A stretch of DNA of 53,351 bases from a virus, in the UHGV virus genome UHGV-0304279. One strand, written 5' to 3'. Below the pieces are notes generated by a model. It was not told the DNA's origin. It saw only the letters and a list, made by a program, of their open reading frames with translations, and ran no database searches. Made by a program: the position numbers and the translations under genes. Below are positions 10,989 through 36,005 of the stretch, piece after piece. The first letter of the stretch is position 1, and every line of letters starts with the position of its first letter.

Positions 10989-11182
10989 TCAAAGAACTGC
11001 ATCACGTCCTGATAGCGGTACATAACGCCACGCCCGGTCCCAAGTGCATCAACAGGGGCCGGAAATGGAGTGCCGTTCCGTTCCCACTTTTTACGCCATA
11101 AGTAAAATGTCCCCCTGCTAATTCCACCAAGCATCCGGCAGATGGCAGGGCGACTAAGAAGTATTGTTCCGGTTTTATCCAT
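10952..11182 (-). CDS. xis: excisionase / AlpA-like DNA-binding protein
   Basis: 76 aa, convergent with and overlapping the int 3' end; HTH-like segment ICRMLGGISRGTFYLWRKK; RBS GGGAGGT. Confidence 0.65.
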   Translation of the reverse strand: MDKTGTILLSRPAICRMLGGISRGTFYLWRKKWERNGTPFPAPVDALGTGRGVMYRYQDVMQFFDQIGLTSAKDNT

Positions 11183-11838: not shown

Positions 11839-12045
11839 TTATTTTACCTCAATAATATTTCCGTTTTTGGTTGGAATAACTTTCCATTCATTAACAGGAA
11901 TAAAATATTCAGGATTATTTTCAATCTCATGTTTTAAATGTGCGTAACATATTCGCCATTCCATAGCCTTGTCGTTCAGGTAATAAACATCGTCACCATC
12001 AATCTGATACAAAATACCAGTAGGTTTTGCTTTATAAAATTTCAT
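11839..12045 (-). CDS. hypothetical protein
   Basis: 68 aa; start overlaps the ninB stop (TAATG). Confidence 0.4.
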   Translation of the reverse strand: MKFYKAKPTGILYQIDGDDVYYLNDKAMEWRICYAHLKHEIENNPEYFIPVNEWKVIPTKNGNIIEVK

Positions 12046-12476
12046 TATTGACCCCAGCGTTTTATGAATTCATCGTTTAATTTCGTGTCACCAGACCACT
12101 GAACACCATGTTCAGCGCCGAACGAATATATCAATTCGATTAGTTCGCTGAATTCTGATTTACTCATTCGACTGGTGGATGTTCCCAATACAACGAAGCC
12201 TGATTTATCCAGGTTGGGGACGACGCCATATTTCTTAAGCCCGGCAGTAAATACCGCTTTCCAGTCTTCCGGCGACAGCTTCTTGCCGTACCAATTAACC
12301 TGATCGCTAACGTCTGTTAGCAGCGCCCAAAACAATGCATTTTGGCTTAGCGAGCGGGTTTTCTCCTGAATGGTAATTATCAGCGGGCTTTTGCTATCAG
12401 GCTGGATCTCCCTTATCTGCCTGATAGCGTTTTCTTTTACTGCGTCGTTTACTATTTCAAATCTTATTTGCCTCAT
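12045..12476 (-). CDS. ninB: recombination protein NinB
   Basis: Resembles lambda NinB throughout (ITIQE..RSL.QN...WA.L.DVS.QV.W.G..L..E.WK.VFTA.LK...VVPNL...GFVV.G.STSRM). Confidence 0.8.
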   Translation of the reverse strand: MRQIRFEIVNDAVKENAIRQIREIQPDSKSPLIITIQEKTRSLSQNALFWALLTDVSDQVNWYGKKLSPEDWKAVFTAGLKKYGVVPNLDKSGFVVLGTSTSRMSKSEFSELIELIYSFGAEHGVQWSGDTKLNDEFIKRWGQ

Positions 12477-12670
12477 GATACACCATTACTATTTTTCCAT
12501 TGCGCCCGCGCATACATGATCGCCCATAAAGAAATTAGTCTTGAACTAGACATAAAATCGTTTTTAAGTTTTTTCATATCAATGACGACAGGGCGATCAG
12601 GATCATCTCCGCGCATGTATTCCGCAATCGTGCTCAGGTCTTCAACAGTTAAATCAAGTTCTTTATCCAT
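12473..12670 (-). CDS. hypothetical protein
   Basis: 65 aa; RBS GAGGTGAG; stop overlaps the ninB start. Confidence 0.4.
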   Translation of the reverse strand: MDKELDLTVEDLSTIAEYMRGDDPDRPVVIDMKKLKNDFMSSSRLISLWAIMYARAQWKNSNGVS

Positions 12671-12678
12671 AACTCACC

Positions 12679-12885
12679 TCACACAATGCGCATTGTGTTT
12701 CGTAATTCACCGCGCAGCGCCTGTAACGCTTCACGAATTGGAACAAAAACCCGTTTAAATTTTACGTGTCTGTACTTGCGCATAAGTGGAGGTGTATAAA
12801 CCATCGCGCCGCGAGAATCGCACGGGAAACGGAAATGTGATTCATCAATGAATGTTTCAACTGAATAAAAGATTACCCGTCTCAT
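12679..12885 (-). CDS. hypothetical protein
   Basis: 68 aa; coupled to the upstream gene. Confidence 0.35.
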   Translation of the reverse strand: MRRVIFYSVETFIDESHFRFPCDSRGAMVYTPPLMRKYRHVKFKRVFVPIREALQALRGELRNTMRIV

Positions 12886-13439
12886 AATTCTAACCCCGTT
12901 TCGCTGTTAAGTTTTTCGATTTCAAATACTGGTTTATCCGGCAGCAGGCCGTTTTTTCTCCGGTATTCGTTAAGGCGGCTGTCAAAATCAAACGCAAGAT
13001 CATTAGCGTGACCGAAGCGCCCAGGCTTAAACAGTGAGTAAAAATTAAGTCCGTGTTTATTGGTATCAATGCAAAGCGTTTCATCAAGGACCATTAAACG
13101 CAGAGTGCGAGAAAGATAATTCCACGGGATACCAGTTTCAGCGCTAATGTCACGCATACGTTTTTTGACGCTGTAGTCACTAAATAACGCCGCCACACGA
13201 TCACGACGTTGTGCATACAAATATTTAATCCGATACCCAAGCAAGCGGCGGCGCGGTCCGAAATATGTATAGACGCGCTCTACAATACCGCTATCTATTA
13301 AGTGTTTAATTGTCTCAGGCAAGCATCCTGCTTCGTCATATTCCGCTGATAATCCTGTTTTCTGGCGTAACTGCTGCATTGTGTCGATGCCATCCAGTTC
13401 AAGGATGTTGATAATTTTTGTTTCAAGTTCAATGCTCAT
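12882..13439 (-). CDS. hypothetical protein
   Basis: 185 aa from ATG 13439 with RBS GAGG; the track ORF extends to a GTG at 13475. Confidence 0.45.
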   Translation of the reverse strand: MSIELETKIINILELDGIDTMQQLRQKTGLSAEYDEAGCLPETIKHLIDSGIVERVYTYFGPRRRLLGYRIKYLYAQRRDRVAALFSDYSVKKRMRDISAETGIPWNYLSRTLRLMVLDETLCIDTNKHGLNFYSLFKPGRFGHANDLAFDFDSRLNEYRRKNGLLPDKPVFEIEKLNSETGLEL

Positions 13440-13518
13440 TGTTTTTAGCCTCAATTTAAGCGCGAAAACAGCCACCAGAAAGCGGTAAACTTTCCGGTAA
13501 GCCGTTTGCTCAAGTTAA

Positions 13519-14940
13519 TTAAAAAGATGCTTTATTCTGGTTGTTTCGTGGCGAGAATCGGCTTACCGCCGGACGTTGTTGCATTGACTGGATGCAAGCT
13601 GACGCCGCGCGGGCCTGGTCACACGGTAATATGTTGCCGTTGTCGTCAAAACGCTGGTAAACAGTCCCGGTTTTTCCGTGACGGTTTTTTGAAACGATAA
13701 TCTCCATGTATTCGCGTGCAACAGATTGTTCGTTGTAGTAGCCGTCGCGGTATACCATGATGATCCGGTCTGCGTCCTGTTCAAGATTGCCGGAATCGCG
13801 CAGATCAGAATTGTTCGGTCGCTTGTTCGGTCGTTCCTCGACGCGGCGGGATAATTGCGCCAGCGCCGCCACTGGTACGCGCAATTCTTTCGCCATCATT
13901 TTCAACGACCATGATAATTGCCCTACAGCGAGATCATGACGTTCGGCCTTAGCCAGCTTCATTAACCCGATGTAGTCAATCATTACCATACCCAGGTTAG
14001 GGTGATCCTGTTTCATTCGTTCGGCGGTGGCGCGTATTTCCTCGACCGTTAACTGTGATGCGTCAACAATCCATACTTCAAGATCAGCAAGTGCGCTCAT
14101 ACCCTGGGCTACGTGCGCCCATCCTTCATCATCAAGTTTTACCGGGTTACGCAGGCAATCAGTTGATAAGTTCCCAGCGCCAGCTATAGCGCGTTCGGTC
14201 ATTTGATCAAGCGACATTTCAAGCGTAAAGAGCAAAACACCGACCCGCTGGCCTTCGCCGCCAGGGTAGGGGCGTTCAGCCGCCGAGCGGGCTATTGCTA
14301 ACGCTAACGCTGATTTGCCAGACCCAGGACGTCCGGCGATAAGCACAAGATCAGTGGCGTTAATGCCGCCTAACATTTCGTCGAGTGGTTCTATCCCTGT
14401 TTTTATGTTGTCAGAATTGACACCGCATTCCATGCGCTTACTTAAAACTTCCGTGTACTCCTGTACTGCGTCGCGCAACAGTACCGGAAGGATCTTGTCT
14501 TTCGTTACCTTTAATTTTGAATACCGGGAATCAAAATCCTTCATCGTCTCCTTGACAACCTCAAGCGTCCCCGTTTCCAGCTTGTAGCGAACGTCTTCCA
14601 TTAGCTCCAGCATTTGCCGCCGCTGGTGTTCTTCCTGTAGTAGCTGCGCGTACCCTTTCAGGTTGGCAGCAGAAGGACACGATCGCGCCGTTTGCATTAG
14701 CGGTATGAAATTTTCGTTACCGATTTCATCACCAACCAATAACGCGTCGATAAGATTTCTGTTTCTGGCTTGCGCCCTGATGATTTCGAACGCGCGCCTG
14801 TACAGAGGAATAGTGAATACATCAGGATCGAGTGTAGCAAGAACATCTTGCGCGTTAGGAGTAAGCCCGCCTAACAGGAGGCCACCTATAACAGCCGCTT
14901 CGCGCTCCTGCCGCAATGAGTTTACTTGCTCAGTTATCAT
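13519..14940 (-). CDS. replicative DNA helicase (DnaB family)
   Basis: Walker A GRPGSGKS, DnaB-like N-terminal domain, RecA-like core; RBS GAGGT. Confidence 0.9.
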   Translation of the reverse strand: MITEQVNSLRQEREAAVIGGLLLGGLTPNAQDVLATLDPDVFTIPLYRRAFEIIRAQARNRNLIDALLVGDEIGNENFIPLMQTARSCPSAANLKGYAQLLQEEHQRRQMLELMEDVRYKLETGTLEVVKETMKDFDSRYSKLKVTKDKILPVLLRDAVQEYTEVLSKRMECGVNSDNIKTGIEPLDEMLGGINATDLVLIAGRPGSGKSALALAIARSAAERPYPGGEGQRVGVLLFTLEMSLDQMTERAIAGAGNLSTDCLRNPVKLDDEGWAHVAQGMSALADLEVWIVDASQLTVEEIRATAERMKQDHPNLGMVMIDYIGLMKLAKAERHDLAVGQLSWSLKMMAKELRVPVAALAQLSRRVEERPNKRPNNSDLRDSGNLEQDADRIIMVYRDGYYNEQSVAREYMEIIVSKNRHGKTGTVYQRFDDNGNILPCDQARAASACIQSMQQRPAVSRFSPRNNQNKASF

Positions 14941-14958
14941 TATGGCATTACCTCATGT

Positions 14959-16077
14959 TTACAAAATGGAATATTCAGGGTAATAAACAAAGCGCCCAAT
15001 TTCTCCATGAGCCGGGCTGTAAATAATCACCGCCGCCAGCCGCCGTGAACGCCAGCCGCCATTCGTCGAGTAAGCATCTTTGCCAGCTAACGTTCCGTGA
15101 TACTCGACAACGCCTAACGATGATTCAATCAGCCGCTGGTGATGCCAGTGTCCGCAATGAGCGTAAACCGACGACGATTTACCGAAATCCTCCCGCCAGT
15201 CAGAAACACAGGCAGCAAGTAAGGTTTCTGGTTTTTTGATGGTGTGTCCGTGGTGGTAAGCAAGGAATGTTTTTCCGTATTGTGTGTGGTGGACGATAGC
15301 AGGGGACACATCAACCGTTACGCGCGGTTCATCTTCGTAAAAAGCCGCCAGCGCCGCACGTAGCCAAATCATCCCCGACTGATCGTGATTGCCGGATAAC
15401 ACCTGGATCTCGACGCCCTTATGGTTTAACAACATTTTCCCCACCGCACGCCGGACCGACCGGATCGCCACATAAACAAGTTTTGCGTAGCGTGAATCGC
15501 AATCTAAGACGTGATTACTTGATGGCGTCACTGGTAATAGCCCGTCCGTGTGAAGCACATCACCGCCGAGAAGCAATACAGCTTTTTCAGACGTTGGTGC
15601 AGCGCCTACAGCGTAGTCAAAGAAGTCATTTAACACGCGTTCAGCGATCCCGGTGTCGTAGCTTTCTCCGCATTCAGCTTTATGCGCAAGCGCCCCGATA
15701 TGCAGATCGAATACCGGATAAAGGGCCAGGCTTTTCTGAAAATCAATTTCCGGCACTGGCACGGCTTCCGCGCGCGGCATTTCTTCCGTAAATGCGTCAC
15801 AAGCTGCCTGCATTAGCCTTTCCATTTCCTCACGGTCACGGGCCGTTTTAATCCAGCGCATGATTACATTGCCATCTTTATCAACGAGCAATGATTCACC
15901 ATTGACACCAAAACCCGGCGCGCGGCGCGTGGATATTAAACCGCGTTTCGCCAGCCGTGCGCCCAGGCGCTCGACGTTGCGTTTTGCCATGCCGTACTTC
16001 TCAGCGATCTGTTTATACGTCAGGCCGCTGTTATGTTCAGCGATTAATTCCTCATCGCTGATCTTTCTTTGTGACAT
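14959..16077 (-). CDS. HTH domain fused to calcineurin-like metallophosphoesterase (SbcD/Mre11-type motifs)
   Basis: N-terminal LTYKQIAEKYGMAKRNVERL HTH; phosphoesterase motifs DLHIG, GGDVLH, GNHD, GHWHH; ATG at 16077 with RBS GAGGA. Confidence 0.6.
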   Translation of the reverse strand: MSQRKISDEELIAEHNSGLTYKQIAEKYGMAKRNVERLGARLAKRGLISTRRAPGFGVNGESLLVDKDGNVIMRWIKTARDREEMERLMQAACDAFTEEMPRAEAVPVPEIDFQKSLALYPVFDLHIGALAHKAECGESYDTGIAERVLNDFFDYAVGAAPTSEKAVLLLGGDVLHTDGLLPVTPSSNHVLDCDSRYAKLVYVAIRSVRRAVGKMLLNHKGVEIQVLSGNHDQSGMIWLRAALAAFYEDEPRVTVDVSPAIVHHTQYGKTFLAYHHGHTIKKPETLLAACVSDWREDFGKSSSVYAHCGHWHHQRLIESSLGVVEYHGTLAGKDAYSTNGGWRSRRLAAVIIYSPAHGEIGRFVYYPEYSIL

Positions 16078-16206
16078 AACGTTATTCCTCATGTTTACAG
16101 AATGTATATTTATTTTCCGTAAAACGCGCTACAACGCAAAATCCCACCGCGTAACCCACTTGTAAGAGTGCAGTGTCTTTCTTGCGTCAGAGGCGCTATC
16201 AGGTGG

Positions 16207-16440
16207 CTATTTTTTGATTTTTAAGATGACATAAACGTTAGCTTGTTGGCGTCCATGCAATTTACTCCTGCAAATGGCTATTACTCCGGCCTGTTCCAGA
16301 GATCGGATCGCTAGCTTAACACTTTGCCGACTCACTCCCAACCTGTCAGCAAGCATGATAAGTGATATTTGATAACCTCCCGTCCGGCAATGCACAGCCA
16401 GCAGATCGTAAACTTTACGCTCAGTTTTGGTTAATTTCAT
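16207..16440 (-). CDS. small winged-helix DNA-binding protein
   Basis: 77 aa with HTH-like segment LADRLGVSRQSVKLAIRSLEQAGVI. Confidence 0.45.
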   Translation of the reverse strand: MKLTKTERKVYDLLAVHCRTGGYQISLIMLADRLGVSRQSVKLAIRSLEQAGVIAICRSKLHGRQQANVYVILKIKK

Positions 16441-16567
16441 GAAAAGCCCTTAAACGCTCTATAACGAAGAAAACGCATTAAGCCAAGCAAGTCTAGCACT
16501 TGATATGTTTTATCGCGTTAGTGGCGCGTTTAAGTGGGTTATTTGGGGTTTTTGTGAAGCTTGGTAG

Positions 16568-17560
16568 TCAAAGAGCGCCAGCGCGGGTGTCGCGTAGCGT
16601 TTTTGGTTTTAGTAAGAAATCTAGTGTCGCAGTGAAGCCATTGCCGAAGTAAAAATCTGAGGCCGTATTTTTGAACGCTTCGAAGTAGCTGATAAAGCCT
16701 TTGATGCTTTTATCTTTCAGGTAGTCAGAGAACGCATAAATTTTACGTTCCAGATCCCGATCAAGTTCAGCAGGTGGTAACAGGCCATCAAACGTGCTGT
16801 TAAATGCTTCCACTACGTCGGCGGCGTTTACAGTAGCTGATAGCTTGCGCCATTGTTCAGCATCAGCCAGATACCCATCGAATTTAGTTACCCGGCAAAT
16901 GTTAATAGGCTTAGGCACTCCACCACGACTACGCCATTGAGTCAAAGCCCATTCAATTACTAATGTGATCTCATCCTCCGTATATGCCTTACGTGTTTTT
17001 GTTTCTGTCAGTAGTTCGATAAATGGTTTTGCGTCACGACATTTGCATCCTGCCTTGTCGTTGTAGAAGGCTAGGCAACGCAATGCTGCCAAATTAGCCG
17101 CCTGATCTTCTTCGCTAATAGGCCCGTCTTTTTCCAATACACGGAGTGTATTGTTTTTAATGTTCTCTTTACTGGTTATATATGACTGATTAGGGTGTCT
17201 CTCTGACACTACCCCCGGTGTCACAGTGACACTACCCTGGTGTCTCTCTGACACTACCCCCGGTGTCTCTCTGACACTACCCTGTAATGATGGTAAGACG
17301 ATTACATAGAAGTTACTTGTTTGCTCTTTTCCTCCTATTAGATATCGAGGTTGCTTAATCAATAACCCTTTCTCACAAAGAGCATCAATAGCCCGCATAG
17401 CTGTGCTTTTGCCTATTTCGCATTGCTTTGCTATGTGCTGGTAAGAAGGGTAACATTCGCCGTTATCGTTAGCGTTATCAGCCAACTTTAACAGCACAAG
17501 TTTGTGCATTGGGTTGCCGACTTCAGTATGAAAGACTTCAACCATTAGCCGCATACTCAT
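16568..17560 (-). CDS. replication initiator (lambda O-like) with internal origin
   Basis: N-terminal winged-helix segment (YPSYQHIAKQCEIGKSTAMRAIDALCEKGLL); iterons embedded in the coding sequence as in lambda ori; ATG 17560 with RBS GGAGG. Confidence 0.7.
   Translation of the reverse strand: MSMRLMVEVFHTEVGNPMHKLVLLKLADNANDNGECYPSYQHIAKQCEIGKSTAMRAIDALCEKGLLIKQPRYLIGGKEQTSNFYVIVLPSLQGSVRETPGVVSERHQGSVTVTPGVVSERHPNQSYITSKENIKNNTLRVLEKDGPISEEDQAANLAALRCLAFYNDKAGCKCRDAKPFIELLTETKTRKAYTEDEITLVIEWALTQWRSRGGVPKPINICRVTKFDGYLADAEQWRKLSATVNAADVVEAFNSTFDGLLPPAELDRDLERKIYAFSDYLKDKSIKGFISYFEAFKNTASDFYFGNGFTATLDFLLKPKTLRDTRAGAL
17194..17283 (+). repeat. origin of replication iterons (four copies of about 22 bp)
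   Basis: Four tandem copies of GGTGTC(TCTCT/ACAGT)GACACTACCC(C/T), each with inverted repeat GTGTC..GACAC, inside the initiator gene. Confidence 0.75.
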
Positions 17561-17782
17561 AAACATTGGCCTCCTATGGTTAAAATGAACGCGCGGGCGG
17601 GTATCCAATTAGCATTAGATAGCGGTGAGTGACCGCTTAACAGATCCCGCCGTTGCGTGATATTTGTCTTTCGCTTCGCAGCGACACCGGATTTTTAAAG
17701 AGCATGAGGTATGCGCCTTTTTGTGCTATTCCGTTATCTTTTTTCTTGCGTCTTTGCAACTATGGCCTTACCTTGTCTGCAA

Positions 17783-27421: not shown

Positions 27422-27587
27422 AGATCTGCAAATAGATATTCAGCGCGCCGAGCGTGATTTAGAGACAGTCAGACAAATCCAGGCTTTTCACATGCGAGAA
27501 TTACTTGCGCTGAAAGAGCTTGAAAGAAAACTGGTGCAATCAATTTCTGATCGTAAACGACTGGCGGCGCGTTACTGGAGCAAATAA
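27405..27587 (+). CDS. hypothetical coiled-coil protein
   Basis: ATG 27405 with RBS GGGGTGA. Confidence 0.4.
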   Translation: MKNEIKDLQIDIQRAERDLETVRQIQAFHMRELLALKELERKLVQSISDRKRLAARYWSK

Positions 27588-28309
27588 TGAATTTAGAATC
27601 AATTCTAAAATTCCACTTTCCCAAATCACCGCGATTATCAGACGAAAGCCGGGGAACATCACCTGACGCACTTAATACTACGGATGCGCTTACCGCCGCT
27701 GGTATGGCGCAATCGCGCGTAGCGCTTGGTTACAGCGCTTTTTTGGGGAAGATGGAGCTATCGCAAGCAGAAAAACACAGGGCCGTAGTTTTGCTTACAG
27801 AGCGTTTAAGAGCTATGGCAAAAGATTACGAATACGTCATGGAACTGGAGGAGAGCCAGCGCAATGATTTTATTATTCTTGTTGCCGTTTTCGCGTTTCG
27901 GGATTATTGCCAAAGCGCCGCGACGGAAAAAACTTGTATGGAGTGCGGCGGATATAAATTTACGTTTGACGAATACGGAGAAAAACACCTTTGCAAAAAA
28001 TGCAAGGGGCACGGGAAAGTTCGCAATCATTGTAAACAATGCAAGGGGCGCGGCGAGATACCGGATAAAACAGCCAGCAATGCGGCAGAAATGCCAGTCT
28101 TCAAAACGTGCCGGCACTGTGGCGGGCGCGGGTACTCGCGTTTCCCGGTAGATCTCGTCCGGCAGGCTGTTAACCAGCTTGTTTTCCCGGTAAGCCGATC
28201 AACATGGTGGAAGAAATACAGGGTTTTCTATGAGGACGCCATAGCGGAGCTATTCAAAGAAGAAGCCCGCGCAGAAAGCGAAATCAAGCGAGTGACACGG
28301 GGTGAATAA
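27587..28309 (+). CDS. putative antitermination protein Q-like / DnaJ-type zinc-finger protein
   Basis: Four CxxCxGxG repeats (CMECGGYK, CKKCKGHG, CKQCKGRG, CRHCGGRG); follows the nin/rusA genes where lambdoid Q lies. Confidence 0.45.
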   Translation: MNLESILKFHFPKSPRLSDESRGTSPDALNTTDALTAAGMAQSRVALGYSAFLGKMELSQAEKHRAVVLLTERLRAMAKDYEYVMELEESQRNDFIILVAVFAFRDYCQSAATEKTCMECGGYKFTFDEYGEKHLCKKCKGHGKVRNHCKQCKGRGEIPDKTASNAAEMPVFKTCRHCGGRGYSRFPVDLVRQAVNQLVFPVSRSTWWKKYRVFYEDAIAELFKEEARAESEIKRVTRGE

Positions 28310-28509
28310 TGGATAAGCTGGAAATAAACGATCAGTTCGCTGTTATCTTATTTGAAGACAAAACAGGCGGCGCATGGTGTAAGAAAGTTACTGGTGCGGA
28401 AGCGCGTTTAATATTAGGTATGGCAAGCGCGTTAAATGAAGGCGAATTGCCTGCCATTCCTGTTAAGCCAGTGCATATCTATAAGCGGGGCGATGATGAA
28501 AATAATTAA
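28309..28509 (+). CDS. hypothetical protein
   Basis: Coupled ORF. Confidence 0.4.
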   Translation: MDKLEINDQFAVILFEDKTGGAWCKKVTGAEARLILGMASALNEGELPAIPVKPVHIYKRGDDENN

Positions 28510-28843
28510 TATCGGGTGGTTATATTGCGAAAACTGCTACGAAGACGGCATGGTCGTTAAGACTGAAAAAGGTTGTGGCCTCTTTCTGTATCAAGGCGAT
28601 AAGTTTGTTTGTCCGCGATGCGGTGGTAGTGGTGAGATAGAAATTATTGAAGATAACGCCGCCGCGCCAGAACCAGAGCGCATTGTCCTTGACGAAAAAA
28701 TAAAAATTCATCCTGATTTATTACAGCAAATTATCGATCACGTATCGGCAGCAGCAATCTACAGCAATAACAATTATCAGCGTGAAATTAACGTCAAACG
28801 TGCGATTGAGCAGTATTTCGAGGGTGATGATAATGAAGCCTAA
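28493..28843 (+). CDS. hypothetical protein with zinc-ribbon-like CxxC pairs
   Basis: CENC...CPRC. Confidence 0.4.
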   Translation: MMKIINIGWLYCENCYEDGMVVKTEKGCGLFLYQGDKFVCPRCGGSGEIEIIEDNAAAPEPERIVLDEKIKIHPDLLQQIIDHVSAAAIYSNNNYQREINVKRAIEQYFEGDDNEA

Positions 28844-29105
28844 ATTAAAAGAACATATTTACCGCCAGTTGGTTAACGAGCTTGCGGATATAGCACGATA
28901 TTACGCCGGGACACAACAGCTACGCGGGCGGCTATCTTCGGTTGTTAACCGCTATATTGATGCCGGATGCCATCGCAAAGGTGAAATTACGATGGATGAA
29001 GCCATCAAGCGCCGGACGGCTGAATGGTCAGTTAGTAACACCGGATTGACCGGATACATTGAAGGCTATAACGACTGTTTACAGGATCATAGCGATGGCA
29101 AGTAA
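28833..29105 (+). CDS. hypothetical protein
   Basis: RBS GAGGGTG. Confidence 0.4.
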   Translation: MKPKLKEHIYRQLVNELADIARYYAGTQQLRGRLSSVVNRYIDAGCHRKGEITMDEAIKRRTAEWSVSNTGLTGYIEGYNDCLQDHSDGK

Positions 29106-29403
29106 AGATCTACATTTAAACCTGAAAGGAGAATACTTTTACGCTATCCGGGCGGGAAAGAAGGTGGAGGAATACCGACTTTATAATGACTACTGGCGTA
29201 AACGCCTGGAAGGGCGGGAATATGAACGCCTGATCATTAAGCTGGGCTATCCAGCCAGCCACGAAACACACCGGATCATAAACCTGCCTTATTTCGGGTA
29301 TGAAGTGAAAACTATCACACATCCATTGTTCGGCCCTGATCCTGTAAAGGTATTCGCAATTAAGTGTGATGTGAATTGGATGTTAAGGTGGGGTGAGCAA
29401 TGA
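29095..29403 (+). CDS. hypothetical protein (possible ASCH/PUA-like)
   Basis: ORF; weak resemblance only. Confidence 0.35.
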   Translation: MASKDLHLNLKGEYFYAIRAGKKVEEYRLYNDYWRKRLEGREYERLIIKLGYPASHETHRIINLPYFGYEVKTITHPLFGPDPVKVFAIKCDVNWMLRWGEQ

Positions 29404-29615
29404 AAAAAGCTGGCCTGTCAATTAACCGCGTATTGTGCGGCGACGAAAACGAGATCCGCATAGAAATTAAATTTAGCACAGGTAAAGAGATAATCCTTTA
29501 CACGACACCTGAAAACCTGACGCTGGCACTTACTGGTAAATCTGAAACGCCGTGCGACGTCAGGTTACGCAATATTGAAATCAAGGAATTAAGGAAGGGT
29601 AAAAATGAAAAGTAA
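29400..29615 (+). CDS. hypothetical protein
   Basis: RBS GGTGAG. Confidence 0.4.
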   Translation: MKKAGLSINRVLCGDENEIRIEIKFSTGKEIILYTTPENLTLALTGKSETPCDVRLRNIEIKELRKGKNEK

Positions 29616-29823
29616 CCGTAAACGCCTGGTAAGGGCGTACGATAAAGCATTAAAGGCTTTTGACGACCTGCGACACAATAAGCGACAGCGCCGTAAATGG
29701 GCGCGAATGCTTGTTCATGAATGGCATTATCCTGATGCTGCCTTGATAGAAGGCGCACCGCCATTTACACAGGAACAAGCCGACGAAGTAGCTAACGATA
29801 ACGTTTATTACATGATGTGGTGA
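29605..29823 (+). CDS. hypothetical protein
   Basis: RBS AAGGAAGGG. Confidence 0.4.
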   Translation: MKSNRKRLVRAYDKALKAFDDLRHNKRQRRKWARMLVHEWHYPDAALIEGAPPFTQEQADEVANDNVYYMMW

Positions 29824-29827
29824 CAAT

Positions 29828-30193
29828 ATGCAAATTATCATTGATTACCTTTGCCATATATTCAATACGATTTTCGGCTTTTATCAACAACCATTCCTTA
29901 AAGAGTGGGATGATATGCTAAACGACATCCTCGACAGAGGATTAATAATGGAGGTTGACGATCTTACAATCAAATTTAATTACGAAGGTGAAATTTATCT
30001 AATTTGGGTAGGTAATAGATGGTATTCATACGCGAATCTTTATTCGCTAAATGGAAAACTTATCCCTAGCAGACAAGAATTCCGACCGCGCTTCCGCACA
30101 ATGCGCCGACTACATGACCTGCATATGAATCTATTTGAAGACCAGGAAGCACGGGAACTATTCAAGATCTACGGAGATAAATCATGGAGCTAA
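29828..30193 (+). CDS. hypothetical protein
   Basis: ORF in operon context. Confidence 0.4.
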   Translation: MQIIIDYLCHIFNTIFGFYQQPFLKEWDDMLNDILDRGLIMEVDDLTIKFNYEGEIYLIWVGNRWYSYANLYSLNGKLIPSRQEFRPRFRTMRRLHDLHMNLFEDQEARELFKIYGDKSWS

Positions 30194-30414
30194 AGATCTG
30201 GCAGGCTATCGACGTAGTTGATAATGAATTAACAATGTTTGCCACTGATGGAAAGCGCGTGGTGATCGCTACATGGACGCATAACCATGATGATATTGTT
30301 TTTCGTCGTGAAGCTGCGGAGTGGCTTTTCTCTGATGAAGGCTACACGATGAACATCGCCCAGCTTGCCAGAATGAAGGATGAAAAGCTGGTAGATAGTT
30401 ACACGACTGCATAG
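30184..30414 (+). CDS. hypothetical protein
   Basis: RBS GGAG. Confidence 0.4.
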   Translation: MELKIWQAIDVVDNELTMFATDGKRVVIATWTHNHDDIVFRREAAEWLFSDEGYTMNIAQLARMKDEKLVDSYTTA

Positions 30415-30424
30415 CGGGGTAAAT

Positions 30425-30655
30425 ATGCGTATCTATGAACACAAGCGGGATAAAACCCGCTTTTTTGTTCGTGCTGGCGTAGCGTACCAGTATCACGAAT
30501 GCGGATATATTGAGGCGCTTGCTTACGACCTGGATTTCGAACAAGAAAAGGAATGGTTTGACTTTAAGATTTACCGTAAGCGCAAACCGACGCGCGACGA
30601 GCGCCACGCTATACGTGACTTTCTAATCAGCATTGACCGCTGGGAGGCAGAATAA
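30425..30655 (+). CDS. hypothetical protein
   Basis: ORF in operon context. Confidence 0.4.
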   Translation: MRIYEHKRDKTRFFVRAGVAYQYHECGYIEALAYDLDFEQEKEWFDFKIYRKRKPTRDERHAIRDFLISIDRWEAE

Positions 30656-30948
30656 TGAAAGCGAAGAAAAAGGCAGATCAGAAAGCGTTAGTTATCGCCA
30701 CAACGGACGTATCGTTATTCACGAAGGGCGAAGAAATAGATCTTAAATTGCTTTTCGGTATGTTTGAGCCACACGAAAAGCCGTGGTTTGTTCATGAAGA
30801 CAAACAAGGCAATATGCGCGTTGTAGTGCCGGACAAAAACAGCGACATATTTTTTGCTATTCCAGACCCGTTACATGACGGGGAAATGCTGGCGGTATTG
30901 TTGATTGCTGACGCTGTTACTTACAAGGGAAAGAAATATGAAAGTTAA
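30655..30948 (+). CDS. hypothetical protein
   Basis: RBS GGGAGG. Confidence 0.4.
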   Translation: MKAKKKADQKALVIATTDVSLFTKGEEIDLKLLFGMFEPHEKPWFVHEDKQGNMRVVVPDKNSDIFFAIPDPLHDGEMLAVLLIADAVTYKGKKYES

Positions 30949-31165
30949 ATTCTTGCACGATCACGGCTACCCGTCATTAAAACGCGTAGTAGGGGAAGTG
31001 GTAGACGTTGTTCACTCTGATGATGTGACCTGCGTCATTATGGGTAAAGACCTCATTACTCACGGTGCTGACGATCACTACATTAACCCTGCCTGGTCGT
31101 ATACGTTTAGCCTGGGCGATTTTGTAGGGGATAAGGGGCGCGGACTGCAAGTAGTCGAGGGTTAA
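30938..31165 (+). CDS. hypothetical protein
   Basis: RBS AAGGGAAAG. Confidence 0.4.
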   Translation: MKVKFLHDHGYPSLKRVVGEVVDVVHSDDVTCVIMGKDLITHGADDHYINPAWSYTFSLGDFVGDKGRGLQVVEG

Positions 31166-31169
31166 TATC

Positions 31170-31385
31170 ATGGACGTTTACGAGGATTTATACCTCCAGA
31201 CAAATAGCCGCACTTTTTATTTTCTGAAAAACGGCGTCGTATATCGCAGCGACGACGGGGTGATAATGAAGGAGTGGCTATTTAAGCGTAAAGACCTGCT
31301 TGATGATCTGGTTTTCGCCGGGATATTCCGTAAACATCCGGCTAACCTGGAAGAAGAAATGCTGATCGACGAGGTATTGAAATGA
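31170..31385 (+). CDS. hypothetical protein
   Basis: RBS GAGGG. Confidence 0.4.
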   Translation: MDVYEDLYLQTNSRTFYFLKNGVVYRSDDGVIMKEWLFKRKDLLDDLVFAGIFRKHPANLEEEMLIDEVLK

Positions 31386-31633
31386 AAATGAAAGTTAATT
31401 ATTTCAGGGCGAAAGATAAGGTGACAGGAAAGCGTGTGGCTATCCTGGTTAACGATGCGCAATATATGTTTGTCCTCCAGCCGTGGTGCATGGCTGACTA
31501 TAACGATGATTATCGCCGTCACGCTGCGCGGCGGGCGGTTGGGATGAAAGGTTGGCAACCGCGCGACATGCTTAATTATTGCGACTGGAATCTGATAGCA
31601 AAATACACGGTCGATTATAAAGGGGTTTTCTGA
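31382..31633 (+). CDS. hypothetical protein
   Basis: RBS GAGGT. Confidence 0.4.
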   Translation: MKMKVNYFRAKDKVTGKRVAILVNDAQYMFVLQPWCMADYNDDYRRHAARRAVGMKGWQPRDMLNYCDWNLIAKYTVDYKGVF

Positions 31634-31845
31634 TGCAAGTTAAATGTTCATACTCAAGCAACGACAGCGTTTTCACGATTGGACGTATTTATGACATTCA
31701 CATCGTTTATGGCAACGAAAATCACACAATGAATAACTGCCTTGCCTTGATTGACAATCAAGATGAGATCTGGATATTCAGGCCGAGCTACAGTGGCGGT
31801 GAAATATCCGGCGTGGGTTTTGCTGCCAGCTTTGAACGTTATTAA
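31633..31845 (+). CDS. hypothetical protein
   Basis: RBS AAAGGGG. Confidence 0.4.
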   Translation: MQVKCSYSSNDSVFTIGRIYDIHIVYGNENHTMNNCLALIDNQDEIWIFRPSYSGGEISGVGFAASFERY

Positions 31846-31855
31846 AGGGGTAAGC

Positions 31856-32107
31856 ATGAAACATTTATATTTTGAGGTAGTGCAGACGCGTGACCGCGAT
31901 ATATTCGATGAGGGGAAAGTTTATTGCGGCGTTCAACTCCACGGCGCACCGGGCGGTGAGGCGATGGCGATAACTGGTGATGATGATAAGGTTTATTTTG
32001 CTTATGTCACACGCTTTCCACACACTGACGAGGTTTATTATCGCATCGTGTATGACTTCCAGGGCGTAGCTGTATTTTGTGAACGTGAAGGCAGTAAACC
32101 GGAATAG
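31856..32107 (+). CDS. hypothetical protein
   Basis: RBS AAAGGGG. Confidence 0.4.
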   Translation: MKHLYFEVVQTRDRDIFDEGKVYCGVQLHGAPGGEAMAITGDDDKVYFAYVTRFPHTDEVYYRIVYDFQGVAVFCEREGSKPE

Positions 32108-32116
32108 GTGATGGTT

Positions 32117-32356
32117 ATGAGTCGGAAACATAGATACCAGTGCACATACTCACGATGCAGCGCGTTTTTTAAGAATGGCAAGATCTACGAGGTTGGCGCG
32201 GCACTGGTTGACGCAAAGGATCAGGAATATATTCACGCCATTACTGACGACCAGGGCCAGCTATGGCGATTTTATAAGATGGGGTGTGGCACGGCGCTTG
32301 TTTATGCGCGTGCTGGTGGTGGTGCTTTTGCTGCATTTTCGTATGTGGGGGCGTAA
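32117..32356 (+). CDS. hypothetical protein
   Basis: Start uncertain (GTG 32108, ATG 32111 or ATG 32117). Confidence 0.35.
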   Translation: MSRKHRYQCTYSRCSAFFKNGKIYEVGAALVDAKDQEYIHAITDDQGQLWRFYKMGCGTALVYARAGGGAFAAFSYVGA

Positions 32357-32358
32357 AA

Positions 32359-32577
32359 ATGATTTTAACGTGTAACGAGTCGGAATTAGGTTGTTTTGAG
32401 GAAGGCGCACAGTATACGGCTGAAAAACCGATGGGATTGTCGCCTAAGTTTCCGTTTATCGTCGTGACTGACACTTACGGTCACTTATGGTATGCAGAGC
32501 CGCTATGCGGTATTGGTCGTTATGTTATCCGTAGTTCTGACGGGGCGAAGAAGGTAACTCTTACGGAAGAAACATAA
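32359..32577 (+). CDS. hypothetical protein
   Basis: RBS GGGGG. Confidence 0.4.
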   Translation: MILTCNESELGCFEEGAQYTAEKPMGLSPKFPFIVVTDTYGHLWYAEPLCGIGRYVIRSSDGAKKVTLTEET

Positions 32578-32596
32578 ATGTGATCTACTTCTCAAA

Positions 32597-32640
32597 GTAT
32601 ACAAAATGGCATTGTTCCTGCAGTGCCGTTTTGTTATATA
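32597..32640 (+). promoter_or_regulatory. intergenic motif pair with promoter-like hexamers
   Basis: GTATACAAAATGGC (32597-32610), -35-like TTGTTC, CCGTTTTGTTATATA (32626-32640). Confidence 0.4.
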
Positions 32641-32674
32641 TAAGTCGAGGAAAGACGGAAGGGGAGACAAGAAA

Positions 32675-32950
32675 ATGAAACGCTGGATTAAAAAAGAAGT
32701 TGAATCTCGCTTAAACGCATTTTGGGATATGGTGGAAAAAGAAGACCCCGCGCACGCAGCAAGCCCTTATCTGAACAACATTGAATATCACTACATTGCA
32801 GCAAACAACGCGGAGTTCGAGGAAGAAGGTGGAGCAGACAAGTTCGCCCAAAGCAACGCATTCGATAACGCAAACGAAATGATGATGGCAGTAATCGCAC
32901 AGGCAGAGGAAGACTGGAGCGAAAAAACATTGGAATGGGCGCGCAAATAA
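32675..32950 (+). CDS. hypothetical protein
   Basis: RBS AAGGGGAG; an in-frame upstream ATG at 32606 lies in the motif region. Confidence 0.4.
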   Translation: MKRWIKKEVESRLNAFWDMVEKEDPAHAASPYLNNIEYHYIAANNAEFEEEGGADKFAQSNAFDNANEMMMAVIAQAEEDWSEKTLEWARK

Positions 32951-32961
32951 GAGGTGGATTT

Positions 32962-33102
32962 ATGAACGCTAACGCCAAATATCCTGCATGGGTTTTCGAA
33001 CTGTATGCACGCTACTTCGAATTACTGGCACCAGGTGAAGAAGCATTGAGCATTGACGAATACGCGGAGTGTTTAGGATTTAAAGGAGACGAAGAAGAAT
33101 AA
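32962..33102 (+). CDS. hypothetical small protein (46 aa)
   Basis: RBS GAGGTGG; below the ORF track cutoff. Confidence 0.35.
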   Translation: MNANAKYPAWVFELYARYFELLAPGEEALSIDEYAECLGFKGDEEE

Positions 33103-33145
33103 AACATGGGGCCGGATGGCCCCATTAAATCAGAAGGGTTTAATT

Positions 33146-33430
33146 ATGAAAAGTGCTAAATTTATTGCTTGCTGTTTTGTTGAAGTACCTAACGATGATG
33201 TTTTCTGTAACTACGAATTTAAAGACAGTGCCGGAACTGTTCATACCATAGTAGGCAAGCGTGGTGACTGGTTATATATCACTGATAGAGACAGAATATT
33301 GACGGTTAACCAACTTATTTACATTAAACGTGGTTACGATGATTATGATCTTTTAAACAAAATAGCAAATGATGTTTTTAATAGCAGTTGCGTAGAAACG
33401 GCAAGATCTCTACCTGGTGCGGAGTTTTAA
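33146..33430 (+). CDS. hypothetical protein
   Basis: RBS GAAGGG. Confidence 0.4.
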   Translation: MKSAKFIACCFVEVPNDDVFCNYEFKDSAGTVHTIVGKRGDWLYITDRDRILTVNQLIYIKRGYDDYDLLNKIANDVFNSSCVETARSLPGAEF

Positions 33431-33432
33431 TT

Positions 33433-33687
33433 ATGGAAATAATCAAAATATGGCGCGGCAATAGTAAGGCTGATGGTGAGTTTTGCCGCGTCGTTCAATT
33501 CGTCAATTATGGTAGGTTTTATGAGCTACCTTATGACAAAAGGAAGGATGATTTTTATTTAAGCGAATCAATCCCGGTGCACAGAAAAATGAAGGCGCTT
33601 AGAGGATTATTGCGAAGTGGTTTTTATTCTTGCCCTAACCCATTAAACAATCCTGAACTGGTAGCTGTTTTTTACGAAGGAAAATAA
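33433..33687 (+). CDS. hypothetical protein
   Basis: RBS GGAG. Confidence 0.4.
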   Translation: MEIIKIWRGNSKADGEFCRVVQFVNYGRFYELPYDKRKDDFYLSESIPVHRKMKALRGLLRSGFYSCPNPLNNPELVAVFYEGK

Positions 33688-33690
33688 ACA

Positions 33691-34014
33691 ATGTCTAAAT
33701 TTATCAGCGTTAAAGTTTTCCGTGGCACTATTCCAGAAGGTGAGAAATACGGCCAATTCGGTGGAATGCCAGGTGCATGTTTCCGTGTAGCCACGGAAGA
33801 CGACGACCATGTTAAATGCTTCCATGTATCGGAGCCGCCTTTTAATCCAGAGCATCTTGAAAACCCGAATAAAATTAAAATGTTCGTTTTCGCTTTACTG
33901 ATGCTTAATCCTTTCCCTGATGTTGAAATGGAATTAGTTGGCGCGGAAGTGGTCGCGGAATACAAAATAACCCCGGCAGAAAACGGAGATTCTAAAATTG
34001 AGCGCATCAAATAA
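33691..34014 (+). CDS. hypothetical protein
   Basis: ORF in operon context. Confidence 0.4.
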   Translation: MSKFISVKVFRGTIPEGEKYGQFGGMPGACFRVATEDDDHVKCFHVSEPPFNPEHLENPNKIKMFVFALLMLNPFPDVEMELVGAEVVAEYKITPAENGDSKIERIK

Positions 34015-34252
34015 ACCTTACAAGATCCGGTGCAAAGGTGAATACCCTGGATTCACTACTGGACTCGAATACCTGGGCCATATGGGGTATGGCCCGTTCG
34101 GCGAGTTAGGAATGAATACGATTGACGACGACGGCGACAACAGGACGCTTGATCTTGATAGCGATGATTTCGAATACATCCCGCCAGTCACTTACCGCGC
34201 CGTCGATGAATTCCTGGCAGAACAAGAAGACGAGGAAGATGAAGATGATTGA
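33998..34252 (+). CDS. hypothetical acidic protein
   Basis: Probable TTG start with RBS GGAG; acidic C-terminus. Confidence 0.3.
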   Translation: MSASNKPYKIRCKGEYPGFTTGLEYLGHMGYGPFGELGMNTIDDDGDNRTLDLDSDDFEYIPPVTYRAVDEFLAEQEDEEDEDD

Positions 34253-34448
34253 ATTACTTATCCTTGCGGTAGTTCTCCTTTATCTGGCTGGCGTCATTTT
34301 AATGGGCGCTTTCCAACAAGCGGTAGATAGTGACGGCATTGTTTGGTTTGAGCTAGTTTTCTGGCCTTTCATTACAATATACGCTTTCGCTGATGCTATG
34401 CGTATTAACATCATGCGAGCTATCAAGGAGCACAAAAATGGGAAATAG
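34239..34448 (+). CDS. small membrane protein
   Basis: Two hydrophobic helices; RBS GAGGAAG. Confidence 0.4.
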   Translation: MKMIELLILAVVLLYLAGVILMGAFQQAVDSDGIVWFELVFWPFITIYAFADAMRINIMRAIKEHKNGK

Positions 34449-34602
34449 CGACCATGAATATGACGGCGTTTATCAGTCACTGGCTACACGCGCTTATTAC
34501 CGCCTTGAGGGTGAAAACGTTTTGATGCGCCTGGGTAGTCTTGATAAATGGCATGAGCCGTTTTTTACCCATGACAGCAAAAGAGATTATTACGATGGTT
34601 AA
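34438..34602 (+). CDS. hypothetical protein
   Basis: RBS AAGGAG. Confidence 0.4.
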   Translation: MGNSDHEYDGVYQSLATRAYYRLEGENVLMRLGSLDKWHEPFFTHDSKRDYYDG

Positions 34603-34699
34603 CCACGGATACTGGCGCAAGGTTGGTGATTTGTAACCATAATCGCACATAAAAAACAAATAGATTAAAATATTTCCTAACAATGCGAAATTGTAATTA

Positions 34700-34721
34700 C
34701 CCGGCCACGTGCCGGGTTTTT
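34700..34721 (+). terminator. terminator-like hairpin immediately upstream of the lysis cassette (candidate tR'-like element)
   Basis: CCCGGC-cacgt-GCCGGG followed by TTTTT. Confidence 0.55.
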
Positions 34722-34740
34722 GCTTGTTGGAGGTAAATCT

Positions 34741-34941
34741 ATGTTCGACAAAATACGGGAGGCGTGCGCGTATGCAGTAGGGGCCGTAACGGCCTTTTTC
34801 GGTGCGATAACCATCAATGATGTTGCTGTCTTTGTGGGTATCTTATCAACCGCAGGTACATTTGCCGTTAACTATTACTTCAAATCACAGGAGAACAAGC
34901 GAGCGCAAGAGGAACACGACGCGCGAATGGGGAATAAGTAA
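34741..34941 (+). CDS. holin (small, two TM helices; likely pinholin partner of the SAR endolysin)
   Basis: 66 aa with two hydrophobic helices and a charged C-terminus; RBS GGAGGT; directly upstream of the endolysin. Confidence 0.65.
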   Translation: MFDKIREACAYAVGAVTAFFGAITINDVAVFVGILSTAGTFAVNYYFKSQENKRAQEEHDARMGNK

Positions 34942-35433
34942 ATGATTAGCCAATCGCTGAAGAACAAGATTATTGCTGCGGCGGCTGGTGGGGCGATCGC
35001 TATTGCGGCTGTGATGGTTAAACCATTAGAAGGCGTGGAGTACGATCCGTATCGTGATGTTATCGGTGTATGGACTGTATGTTATGGTCATACCGGAAAA
35101 GACATCATGCTTGGTAAGACTTACACGCAATCAGAATGCGATGCTTTGTTAAATAAAGATCTCCACAAAACCGCAAAAGCGATCGACCCCTATATTAAAG
35201 TCGAAATATCAGATTTTACCCGCGCGGCGCTTTATTCATTCGCCTATAACGTAGGCGCTACCAACTTTAAAACATCAACATTATTGAAGCTACTCAATGA
35301 CGGCAAGAAATCGGAAGCGTGCGCACAGCTTAAACGCTGGATCTATGCTGGTGGTAAGCAGTGGCAAGGGTTAATTAACCGTCGTGATATTGAATATGCC
35401 GTTTGCGAATGGGGTGAAACATGGACAAGGTAA
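34942..35433 (+). CDS. SAR endolysin (T4-lysozyme-like, GH24) with N-terminal signal-anchor-release domain
   Basis: Catalytic-region motifs (EG..YDPY.D..G.WT.CYGHTG) preceded by a Gly/Ala-rich weakly hydrophobic N-terminal helix ([18 protein letters not shown]). Confidence 0.8.
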
Positions 35434-36005
35434 AGGCGTTAGTTATTGCCGTTGTTGTTTGCATTATTGCCGGACTAACTGCCGTTACATGTTATTACCA
35501 GGGTGAGGCGGCAAGGTTACAGGAAGAAGTCACGGTGACGCAAGGCGCACTAAAAACAGCAAGTAACACCATTCAGCAGATGAAGGAGCGAAACGCCGAA
35601 CTGTCAAAACTTGATAAGAGGTATCACGATGAGATTAAAGCTATCAGATCTGACATTGCCGATCTGCGCACTGGCATTGATAGCGGCGCTATCAGGTTGC
35701 ACGTCAACGCCGAGCCAGTGCGATTGCTCGACAATACCGGAGCCGCCAGCCGCATTGATGGAGCCACCTGTAGACTCACTCCCGACGCTGAATCGGCTTA
35801 TCTATCCCTCAGAGAACAACTAAAAGAGAAAGACGCGAAGATCACCGGATTGCAGGACTACATCAAAACGCAGTGCTTACGCAAAGAACAACAGCGCGTG
35901 GACGTGTCGCCGTTTCCGCCAGCCAGCCATAACCGGGCCAATCCTTCCCGCGAGCGACGGCGGAATAGTCAAAAACACGTAATGCCGGAACATCCATCCC
36001 ATTAA
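35421..36005 (+). CDS. i-spanin Rz (with unusually long C-terminal extension)
   Basis: N-terminal TM helix followed by coiled coil; contains the embedded Rz1 frame. Confidence 0.65.
35629..35823 (+). CDS. o-spanin Rz1 (lipoprotein, embedded in Rz in the +1 frame)
   Basis: Lipobox LSGC within a signal peptide, Pro-rich mature part; RBS AAGAGG. Confidence 0.65.
   Translation: MRLKLSDLTLPICALALIAALSGCTSTPSQCDCSTIPEPPAALMEPPVDSLPTLNRLIYPSENN

Follow-up and report, generated by a model that had tools for sequence, protein, structure and literature searches.

A conserved array of 25 small genes between the Q gene and the lysis cassette of an mEp021-like phage genome

A dense array of small genes and its relatives

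The virus genome UHGV-0304279, hereafter called the window, is 53,351 nucleotides (nt) long. Between the gene for a Q antiterminator and a lysis cassette coding for an HP1-type holin, a lysozyme and Rz, it harbours 25 consecutive open reading frames (ORFs) of 46 to 121 amino acids (aa) each, all on the + strand. These ORFs, called g01 to g25, fill 97% of the 6.3-kb segment from 28309 to 34602 (Table 1). An earlier note on this DNA had described a dense run of about 25 small ORFs between a Q-like gene and the lysis genes, nearly all with plausible ribosome-binding sites, and both statements hold, with Shine-Dalgarno-like cores of at least 4 nt preceding 25 of 25 starts compared with 28% of random positions. 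The numerous coupled overlaps mentioned there are also present, as 14 of the 25 genes overlap their predecessor, over a range of 1-17 nt instead of the 1-30 nt given. Nine other junctions are gaps of 0-11 nt. Only two gaps are larger, one of 97 nt after g17 and one of 43 nt between g19 and g20, and each contains a conserved hairpin. When all ORFs of ≥46 aa are counted, coverage of the segment is 99% on the + strand and 57% on the - strand, compared with a mean of 26% and a maximum of 47% in 200 shuffled sequences.

For comparative analyses, we used 10 annotated relatives (4 phages and 6 Escherichia coli prophages) and 46 contigs from IMG/VR. The ratios of nonsynonymous to synonymous substitution rates (dN/dS; Nei-Gojobori estimates pooled over non-independent pairs) are between 0.03 and 0.30 in the called frame for all 25 ORFs, whereas reading these alignments in either shifted frame gave values of approximately 0.8 to 8.7. 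Purifying selection in the called frame only indicates that the ORFs are genes. Loss of frame in close relatives, named in the earlier note as the sign of spurious ORFs, was not observed: the frames are intact in nearly all orthologues in 54 related genomes, and independent annotation pipelines predict the same genes in the relatives. All 25 ORFs are thus protein-coding genes.

By sequence, the window is an mEp021-like temperate coliphage of the mEpimmI group. This group was described in 2025, and the genes of the slot between Q and the holin gene were treated as hypothetical or flexible, without analysis of the region (PMC11893012). The DNA of the region is 83-86% identical to that of mEp phages and MagusPhagus and 83-88% identical to that of 35 E. 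coli prophages, and the best match among the records searched does not exceed 88% identity. The flanks are syntenic in the 10 annotated relatives, with genes for NinG, RusA and Q upstream and for the HP1 holin, lysozyme and Rz downstream. Annotations of mEpimmI phages and E. coli prophages already include the whole array, its genes being labelled as coding for hypothetical proteins.

The presence/absence comparison proposed in the earlier note revealed extensive variation among the 54 genomes. The slot ranges in length from 2.0 kb in mEp021, which has 8 genes there, to 7.1 kb, and with 6.4 kb that of the window comes close to this upper limit. The 238 annotated coding sequences of 11 genomes fall into 28 families whose order is fixed, 25 of which are represented in the window. 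Five genes (g08, g09, g11, g12 and g13, corresponding to mEp021 gp38 to gp42) are found in all 54 genomes and in the window, and four more are nearly universal (g07 in 53 genomes; g01, g06 and g22 in 50). At the other extreme, g02, g05, g10, g14 to g18 and g25 are the most dispensable, being present in 19 to 33 genomes, and g19 to g21 are present in 33 to 36. Homology between the window and its relatives breaks within a few nt of gene starts and stops, for instance at g05, g18 and g10, the breakpoints of the latter being located 6 nt after the end of g09 and exactly at the start of g11. Many genes have two or more allelic classes. The fixed order of the 28 families, the breakpoints at gene ends and the allelic classes argue that the array is closed and syntenic, formed by the loss of whole genes and the exchange of alleles, and is not an open cargo site. 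A scan of the GTDB species-representative genomes with g09, addressing distribution beyond E. coli, yielded no relative.

In the prophage of E. coli 2017C-4173W12 (L008), a single 153-aa ORF at 3162-3623 joins g01-like and g03-like sequences. It represents an in-frame fusion by whole-gene deletion, g02 being missing there.

Two gene models deserve comment. The TTG start of g23 and the N-terminal region that follows are conserved in frame in the relatives, which corrects the gene model. An additional T in the T-run at 34561-34566 shifts the frame of g25 relative to intact orthologues (relatives L005 and L009), reflecting either recent pseudogenisation or a homopolymer sequencing error. The C-terminal part of g25, ...LPMTAKEIITMVNHGYWRKVGDL, is readable in another frame up to 34636. 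Relatives harbour one to three tandem copies of the g25 family (motif DG[VI]Y...Y.[LV].G), and many have two or three just before the conserved block that precedes the holin gene, e.g. at L002 9456-10033, at L001 8645-9000 and as mEp021 gp44/gp45. The window retains a single, frameshifted copy.

The window as a whole (1-53351) appears to be a complete phage genome, about 53 kb long and circularly permuted. Tail genes occupy 1-9170, followed by an integrase-sized ORF (9783-10988), leftward early genes (11182-17608) and rightward early genes from about 17869. After the lysis genes, the terminase, portal and head genes start at 37448. An ORF for an Rz1-like lipoprotein (35611-35823, with LSGCTS) lies out of frame inside that for Rz (35421-36005), an arrangement known from lambdoid spanins.

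Table 1. Genes and putative transcription signals from Q to the holin gene (fractions give the number of genomes with the gene)
Feature	Coordinates	Strand	Observations
Q antiterminator gene	27587-28309	+	PF03589, E 1e-28; upstream boundary; stop overlaps g01 start (ATGA)
g01, 66 aa	28309-28509	+	phrog_35000 end to end; dN/dS 0.07; 50/54
g02, 115 aa, acidic	28496-28843	+	N-terminal CxxC...CxxCxGxG zinc-ribbon-like motif; dN/dS 0.20; 25/54
g03, 90 aa	28833-29105	+	phrog_29262; dN/dS 0.23; 46/54; two allelic classes (~63%, ~90% identity)
g04, 102 aa, probably ASCH/PUA-like	29095-29403	+	phrog_625; dN/dS 0.08
g05, 71 aa, widely shared phage cassette	29400-29615	+	phrog_1222; 22/54
g06, 72 aa, basic	29605-29823	+	phrog_8758; dN/dS 0.22; 50/54
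g07, 121 aa	29828-30193	+	phrog_16975; dN/dS 0.14; 53/54
g08, 76 aa, core, mEp021 gp38 orthologue	30184-30414	+	phrog_38280; dN/dS 0.10; 54/54
g09, 76 aa, core, mEp021 gp39 orthologue	30425-30655	+	phrog_30442; dN/dS 0.03; 54/54; most conserved of the array
Hairpin + T6, intrinsic-terminator-like, codons 7-16 of g09	30443-30468	+	terminator scan
g10, 97 aa, dispensable cassette	30655-30948	+	phrog_33175; 33/54
g11, 75 aa, core, mEp021 gp40 orthologue	30938-31165	+	phrog_5009; dN/dS 0.08; 54/54
g12, 71 aa, core, mEp021 gp41 orthologue (annotated 'virion structural protein')	31170-31385	+	54/54
g13, 83 aa, basic, core	31382-31633	+	phrog_38609; dN/dS 0.15; 54/54
g14, 70 aa, predicted DUF6501-like beta-barrel, paralogue 1	31633-31845	+	phrog_31142; 21/54
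g15, 83 aa, probable paralogue 2	31856-32107	+	shares paralogue motif; 21/54
g16, 82 aa, paralogue 3, the one modelled	32108-32356	+	
g17, 72 aa, possible paralogue 4	32359-32577	+	motif C.ES...CFEEG.QY...VVTDTYGHLWY; pairwise support weak; 28/54
Intergenic hairpin with A-tract and T-tract flanks, terminator-like, in the 97-nt gap after g17	32597-32639	+	
g18, 91 aa, acidic	32675-32950	+	phrog_7287; 20/54; whole-gene indel, breakpoints ≤9 nt from ends
g19, 46 aa, acidic	32962-33102	+	phrog_22232; dN/dS 0.03; 36/54
g20, 94 aa	33146-33430	+	without PHROG match; dN/dS 0.19; 36/54, mostly ~60%-identity alleles
g21, 84 aa	33433-33687	+	phrog_32200; 33/54; two allelic classes (~48%, ~95% identity)
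g22, 107 aa	33691-34014	+	phrog_23107; dN/dS 0.30; 50/54
g23, 84 aa, very acidic, poly-D/E tail, TTG start	33998-34252	+	phrog_25234; net charge -17; 47/54
g24, 69 aa, sole predicted membrane protein of the array	34239-34448	+	phrog_10061; maximal 19-residue hydropathy 2.81; 48/54
g25	34438-34636	+	reads as 54 aa to 34602; intact form 65 aa to 34636
Candidate PR', qut-like layout	34643-34684	+	-35 TCGCAC 34643-34648; -10 TAAAAT 34666-34671; pause-like AACAAT 34679-34684
Intrinsic terminator, tR'-like	34699-34725	+	terminator scan; fold energy; conserved stem
HP1-family holin gene, first lysis gene	34741-34941	+	PF16080, E 1e-15; downstream boundary

Products of the array

The proteins of the array are small, mostly soluble and in many cases acidic. 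Searches against Pfam and NCBIfam gave no match above the curated cut-offs for any of the 25, and no match was found in PADLOC (dbAPIS and AntiDefenseFinder were not among the libraries searched). A search of PDB sequences with the 25 concatenated proteins gave no match at E≤10, and no solved anti-defence protein was matched. The claim of the earlier note that no recognisable family is represented therefore stands for these libraries; it does not extend to PHROG, in which 20 of the 25 proteins belong to families, all labelled 'unknown function'. Likewise, of the CxxC pairs and hydrophobic helices reported in it, we could confirm the former in g02 and the latter, as a membrane protein, in g24, and neither in the other proteins. 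No signal peptides and no virulence or defence families were found among the array proteins.

A few proteins gave additional clues. The g02 protein has a below-threshold match to DnaJ_CXXCXGXG (E 0.0075) and weak similarity to the zinc finger of Q. The g04 protein is probably an ASCH/PUA-like domain protein, judging from relatives named 'ASCH domain-containing' or 'RNA-binding protein' by NCBI, from below-threshold ASCH matches for 8 of its 16 homologues (best E 0.006) and from weak PDB matches to PH0355 and PF0469 (E ~0.7); g04 itself has no Pfam match and does not reach the gathering threshold of ASCH (PF04266). Homologues of g05 were found in 230 phage records, including Dhillonvirus, Shiga toxin (Stx) phages and phages of Salmonella and Erwinia, and those in the two records inspected, one from an Stx-type phage and one from a Dhillonvirus, sit in early or replication modules. 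The g12 protein, which is confined to E. coli, is 90% identical to mEp021 gp41, a protein detected in virions by mass spectrometry (PMC11893012). Its structural model is poor (predicted local distance difference test, pLDDT, of 63) and gave no meaningful fold match. Two g12 alleles are common in E. coli prophages, one of 71 aa, as in the window, and one of 82 aa, whose longer tail overlaps g13 by 38 nt.

The adjacent genes g14 to g17 share the motif C.[YS]....F..G..Y ... [IV]TDD.G.[WY].F. Sequence comparisons firmly establish g14 and g16 as paralogues (phmmer E 3e-5; hhalign probability 76%), with g15 probably belonging to the same family (hhalign probability 44% with g16) and g17 possibly so. 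In relatives, one or two further paralogues are found just upstream of these genes, giving up to five in tandem. We also considered a single superfamily spanning most of the small beta-rich proteins of the array, defined by an 'F..G..Y ... DD.G' motif. All-versus-all hhalign comparisons and a combined DUF6501 profile did not support it, and the membership of g10, g11, g12, g20, g22 and g23 in the paralogue family was similarly unsupported.

The g16 family is tiny, with 12 clusters in a word-indexed search and 19 matches in an exhaustive profile search of 1.84 billion representatives. Several of these 19 matches were discarded as repeats of unrelated beta-propeller, PAS or Ig-like proteins. Another is a 270-aa protein made up of four repeats of the Pfam domain DUF6501. 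The g14-g17 profile aligned with these four repeats at an hhalign probability of 93.1% (E 3e-7, 48 columns), and the DUF6501 repeats compared with single proteins gave 46% for g16 and 26% for g14. Direct searches of g14 to g17 against DUF6501 (PF20111) gave no match at E≤1, and the gathering threshold was not reached. With the g14-g17 profile, only chance matches were obtained among PDB sequences.

An AlphaFold2 model of g16, built from a 7-sequence alignment (pLDDT 73.8, predicted template modelling score 0.65), is six-stranded and all-beta, with a long loop between beta1 and beta2. It matches the fold of Gp54 of phage Bas11 (PDB 9AXB), a six-stranded barrel with the same long beta1-beta2 loop. 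In a Foldseek search of viral models, the g16 model also matched many small uncharacterised proteins, mostly from enterobacterial phages, with TM scores of about 0.6-0.7. Gp54 is a non-essential protein whose own function is unknown; its topology was described as 'very rare in nature', it directly activates the bacterial immune sensor and defence protein CapRelSJ46, and its describers speculate that it may inhibit another defence system (PMC11578894). At the sequence level, Gp54 and g14 to g17 are not detectably similar (hhalign probability 0.3%, no PF25180 match, different PHROGs). As the model matches the Gp54 fold without sequence similarity, the claim is limited to the same predicted fold: g14 to g17 are predicted to share the fold of Gp54, not to be members of its family. 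Literature searches found nothing relevant on DUF6501 or on anti-defence work concerning this region.

Putative transcription signals within and around the array

The Q protein of the window classifies as lambda-type, being 33% identical to lambda Q and to P22 gp23 in alignments that span 99% of its length. The 104 nt directly upstream of the holin gene are near-invariant in the 54 genomes, regardless of which gene precedes them. In the window, this block contains TCGCAC (TTGTAG in the other allele), 17 nt, TAAAAT, 7 nt and AACAAT, a layout similar to that of lambda PR' (TTGACT, 17 nt, TAAATT, 6 nt, AACGAT). TAAAAT and AACAAT are near-invariant across the genomes, except in one divergent contig pair. 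By analogy with lambda, we infer that the block is a candidate Q-responsive late promoter, PR'/qut. The two -35 alleles do not covary with Q alleles, as the length of Q (723 or 729 nt) does not, by eye, track them.

The block closes with an intrinsic terminator, a GC-rich hairpin plus T-run with a minimum free energy (MFE) of -19.3 kcal/mol (z -3.2), whose CCCGGC/GCCGGG stem is invariant and whose loop is variable among the 54 genomes. An equivalent terminator is annotated as TERM_5 in mEp021 (GenBank), and 't5' is listed as experimentally demonstrated (PMC11893012). The terminator of the window is probably equivalent to TERM_5/t5, assuming that the two labels designate the same element.

We searched for a late promoter hidden near Q through scans of synonymous or third-position constraint in the 3' end of Q, g07, g08, g11, g12 and g13. 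They revealed no hidden constrained block, which argues against a late promoter beside Q. In addition, 23 of the 25 array genes have no room for a promoter upstream, and g01 overlaps the stop codon of Q. A further terminator-like hairpin, with a T-run, is present at 27721-27739, within the first third of the Q gene. Synonymous constraint in Q was seen elsewhere, in windows at codons ~65 and ~96-106.

Inside the array, the hairpin in g09 has an MFE of -16.5 kcal/mol (z -4.9). The minor-allele frequency at third positions of g09 is 0.014 in the hairpin compared with 0.166 in the rest of the gene, and 1 of 10 third positions varies in the hairpin compared with 42 of 66 elsewhere. Stem variants are limited to one compensatory CG to GC double change and one G.U change in 57 genomes. 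The hairpin is thus clearly under selection at the nucleotide level, within a universally conserved coding sequence. The hairpin located downstream of g17 (MFE -22.3 kcal/mol, z -7.0) is present in 44 of 57 genomes; its loop is variable, and the changes in its stem preserve the structure.

The gap between g19 and g20 harbours, at 33106-33125, a conserved 8-bp GC-rich hairpin, ATGGGGCC-GGAT-GGCCCCAT. Its T-run is on the - strand only, where no genes lie, and the hairpin may serve in RNA processing or stability, or be a remnant. Searches of the window for Rfam families and tRNAs found neither.

The array as a probable part of an early operon, and its comparison with known systems

Because the PR'-like block adjoins the holin gene and not Q, we consider it rather probable that the array is the accessory, promoter-distal end of the delayed-early rightward operon, which would continue past Q. 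The 25 genes would be translationally coupled and devoid of individual promoters. An N-like protein such as Gp17 of mEp021 would render the polymerase resistant to termination, so that it would read past the hairpins in g09 and after g17. Unmodified polymerase would be attenuated at both, leading to graded expression along the array. The universal g08, g09, g11, g12 and g13 probably serve the development of the phage itself, and the other 20 or so genes are dispensable whole-gene cassettes with two or more allelic classes. The products would most likely bind host or phage macromolecules early in lytic growth. Both the timing of expression and the antitermination logic are proposed here.

A number of observations weigh against this reading. 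The assignment of the late promoter leans on conservation and on the analogy with lambda, since promoter-like matches are no commoner than in shuffled sequences (19 versus 20.8 expected in a generic scan), and the -35 allele of the window, TCGCAC, is a weak match. Early transcripts, whether or not made by Gp17-modified polymerase, could equally stop at t5 or pass it. To these must be added the moderate confidence of the g16 model, the lack of detectable sequence similarity between Gp54 and g14 to g17, and the pooling of dN/dS over non-independent pairs.

Compatible with the early-operon reading, and in line with the suggestion in the earlier note that such clusters often hold host-takeover or anti-defence proteins, is the possibility that the array forms a counter-defence or host-takeover island. 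Most of the dispensable cassettes, among them the Gp54-fold paralogues, the acidic g23, g18 and g19, would then code for early-expressed inhibitors or decoys of host immunity or host machinery. We regard this as unlikely. The probable early expression of the array would suit such a role, as would products that are small, non-essential-looking and variable in both presence and allele. The g16 model matches the fold of a direct CapRelSJ46 trigger, and the strong negative charge of g23 would fit a DNA-mimic-like protein. However, no match was obtained to solved anti-defence proteins or in PADLOC, Pfam or NCBIfam; the repertoire of 28 families is small and closed, unlike the open turnover of arms-race loci; all genes are under purifying selection; and the function of Gp54 itself is unknown. 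A more specific version, which we find doubtful and which builds on the structural model, would have the tandem Gp54-fold/DUF6501-like barrels, as a diversified set of small early proteins, engage host immune sensors and thereby inhibit or distract CapRel-type or other defence systems. The whole post-Q array would then be an early counter-defence island, with dosage along the operon set by the embedded terminators.

An assignment of the array to the late operon appears improbable. In this reading, the promoter used by Q would be located at the Q gene or immediately past it, as in lambda and Stx phages. Q would override termination at the g09 hairpin, and the array genes would be expressed with those for lysis and morphogenesis. 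In lambdoid phages PR' directly follows Q, and in the minimal mEp021 array the g09 hairpin lies approximately 260 nt past Q. The detection of the g12 orthologue in virions (PMC11893012) would also suit late expression. However, g01 (in mEp021, g08) overlaps the stop codon of Q, leaving no intergenic space, and there is no synonymous-site constraint in the 3' end of Q, g07 or g08 that could hide a promoter or qut site. Most genomes have 2 kb of variable cassettes between Q and the g09 hairpin, and a lambda-like PR'/pause layout is found in a single conserved non-coding block, which adjoins the holin gene.

It is very improbable that the array consists of lysogenic-conversion morons that the prophage transcribes from promoters of their own for the benefit of the host. 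Related prophages are common in E. coli, and a promoter-like sequence, TTGTTC-17-TATATA preceded by a TG, is found in the 97-nt gap after g17. This sequence coincides with the terminator-like hairpin, promoter-like matches are not above shuffle expectation, and 23 of the 25 genes lack a promoter-sized gap upstream. The flanking promoter and terminator typical of morons are not seen, and neither signal peptides nor virulence or defence families were found.

Finally, the view that the ORFs are chance open frames, to which the very short lengths, the lack of a convincing PHROG match for g12, g15, g17, g20 and marginally g25, and the presence of - strand ORFs of up to 113 aa might lend some colour, is already refuted by purifying selection in the called frame only for all 25 ORFs and by frame conservation in 54 genomes, along with the Shine-Dalgarno-like cores at all starts and the agreement between pipelines in relatives.

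A block of hypothetical small genes already carried and annotated in relatives is an ordinary finding in itself. Modest interest is added first by the placement, as the accessory cargo of this group, in contrast to lambda or Stx phages, appears to have been moved to a site between Q and the late promoter. This arrangement predicts early expression dependent on N-type antitermination, and the constrained terminator inside a universal coding sequence suggests graded expression along the array. The tandem family with a predicted Gp54 fold links the array to the sole characterised protein of that fold, the CapRelSJ46 trigger, and the fold predicted for g14 to g17 would provide a first structural context for DUF6501.

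The closest systems are the Q-to-holin segments of mEp021 (gp38-gp45), mEp010, mEp013, mEp044, mEp554 and MagusPhagus, which have the same flanks, gene order, families and pre-holin terminator. Compared with the 8 genes in 2.0 kb of mEp021, the window is near-maximal, with 25 genes in 6.4 kb.

Among the protein families, Gp54 of Bas11 (PDB 9AXB; PF25180, 'Phage antiviral trigger protein Gp54'; phrog_7421) belongs to different PHROGs from g14 to g17, and its fold is predicted here for four to five tandem paralogues. DUF6501 (PF20111) resembles g14 to g17 in the motif C...G..Y...[IV].DD.G....F and in sharing the weak PHROG neighbours phrog_4927 and phrog_6261. It differs from them in that g14 to g17 have an extra C-terminal strand region, and DUF6501 has no known function.

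In phage lambda, the nin region comprises ninA to ninI between P and Q, with the terminators tR2 to tR4. The array is similar to it as a mosaic of dense, small, overlapping and largely dispensable ORFs with internal terminators. In lambda these ORFs are delayed-early and are read through the terminators by N-modified polymerase. Homologues of NinG and RusA are encoded just upstream of the array in the window. However, Q precedes the array instead of following it, and control of Q expression by the terminators of the array is therefore impossible. In addition, early expression is proposed here by inference, and no sequence relationship was detected between the 25 array proteins and Nin proteins.

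In Stx phages, stx and neighbouring genes lie between Q and S, after PR' and tR', and their expression is late and Q-dependent. The array resembles them in the insertion of accessory genes between Q and the lysis genes. In contrast with Stx phages, the lambda-like PR'/terminator block of the mEp021-like genomes follows the cargo and directly precedes the holin gene.

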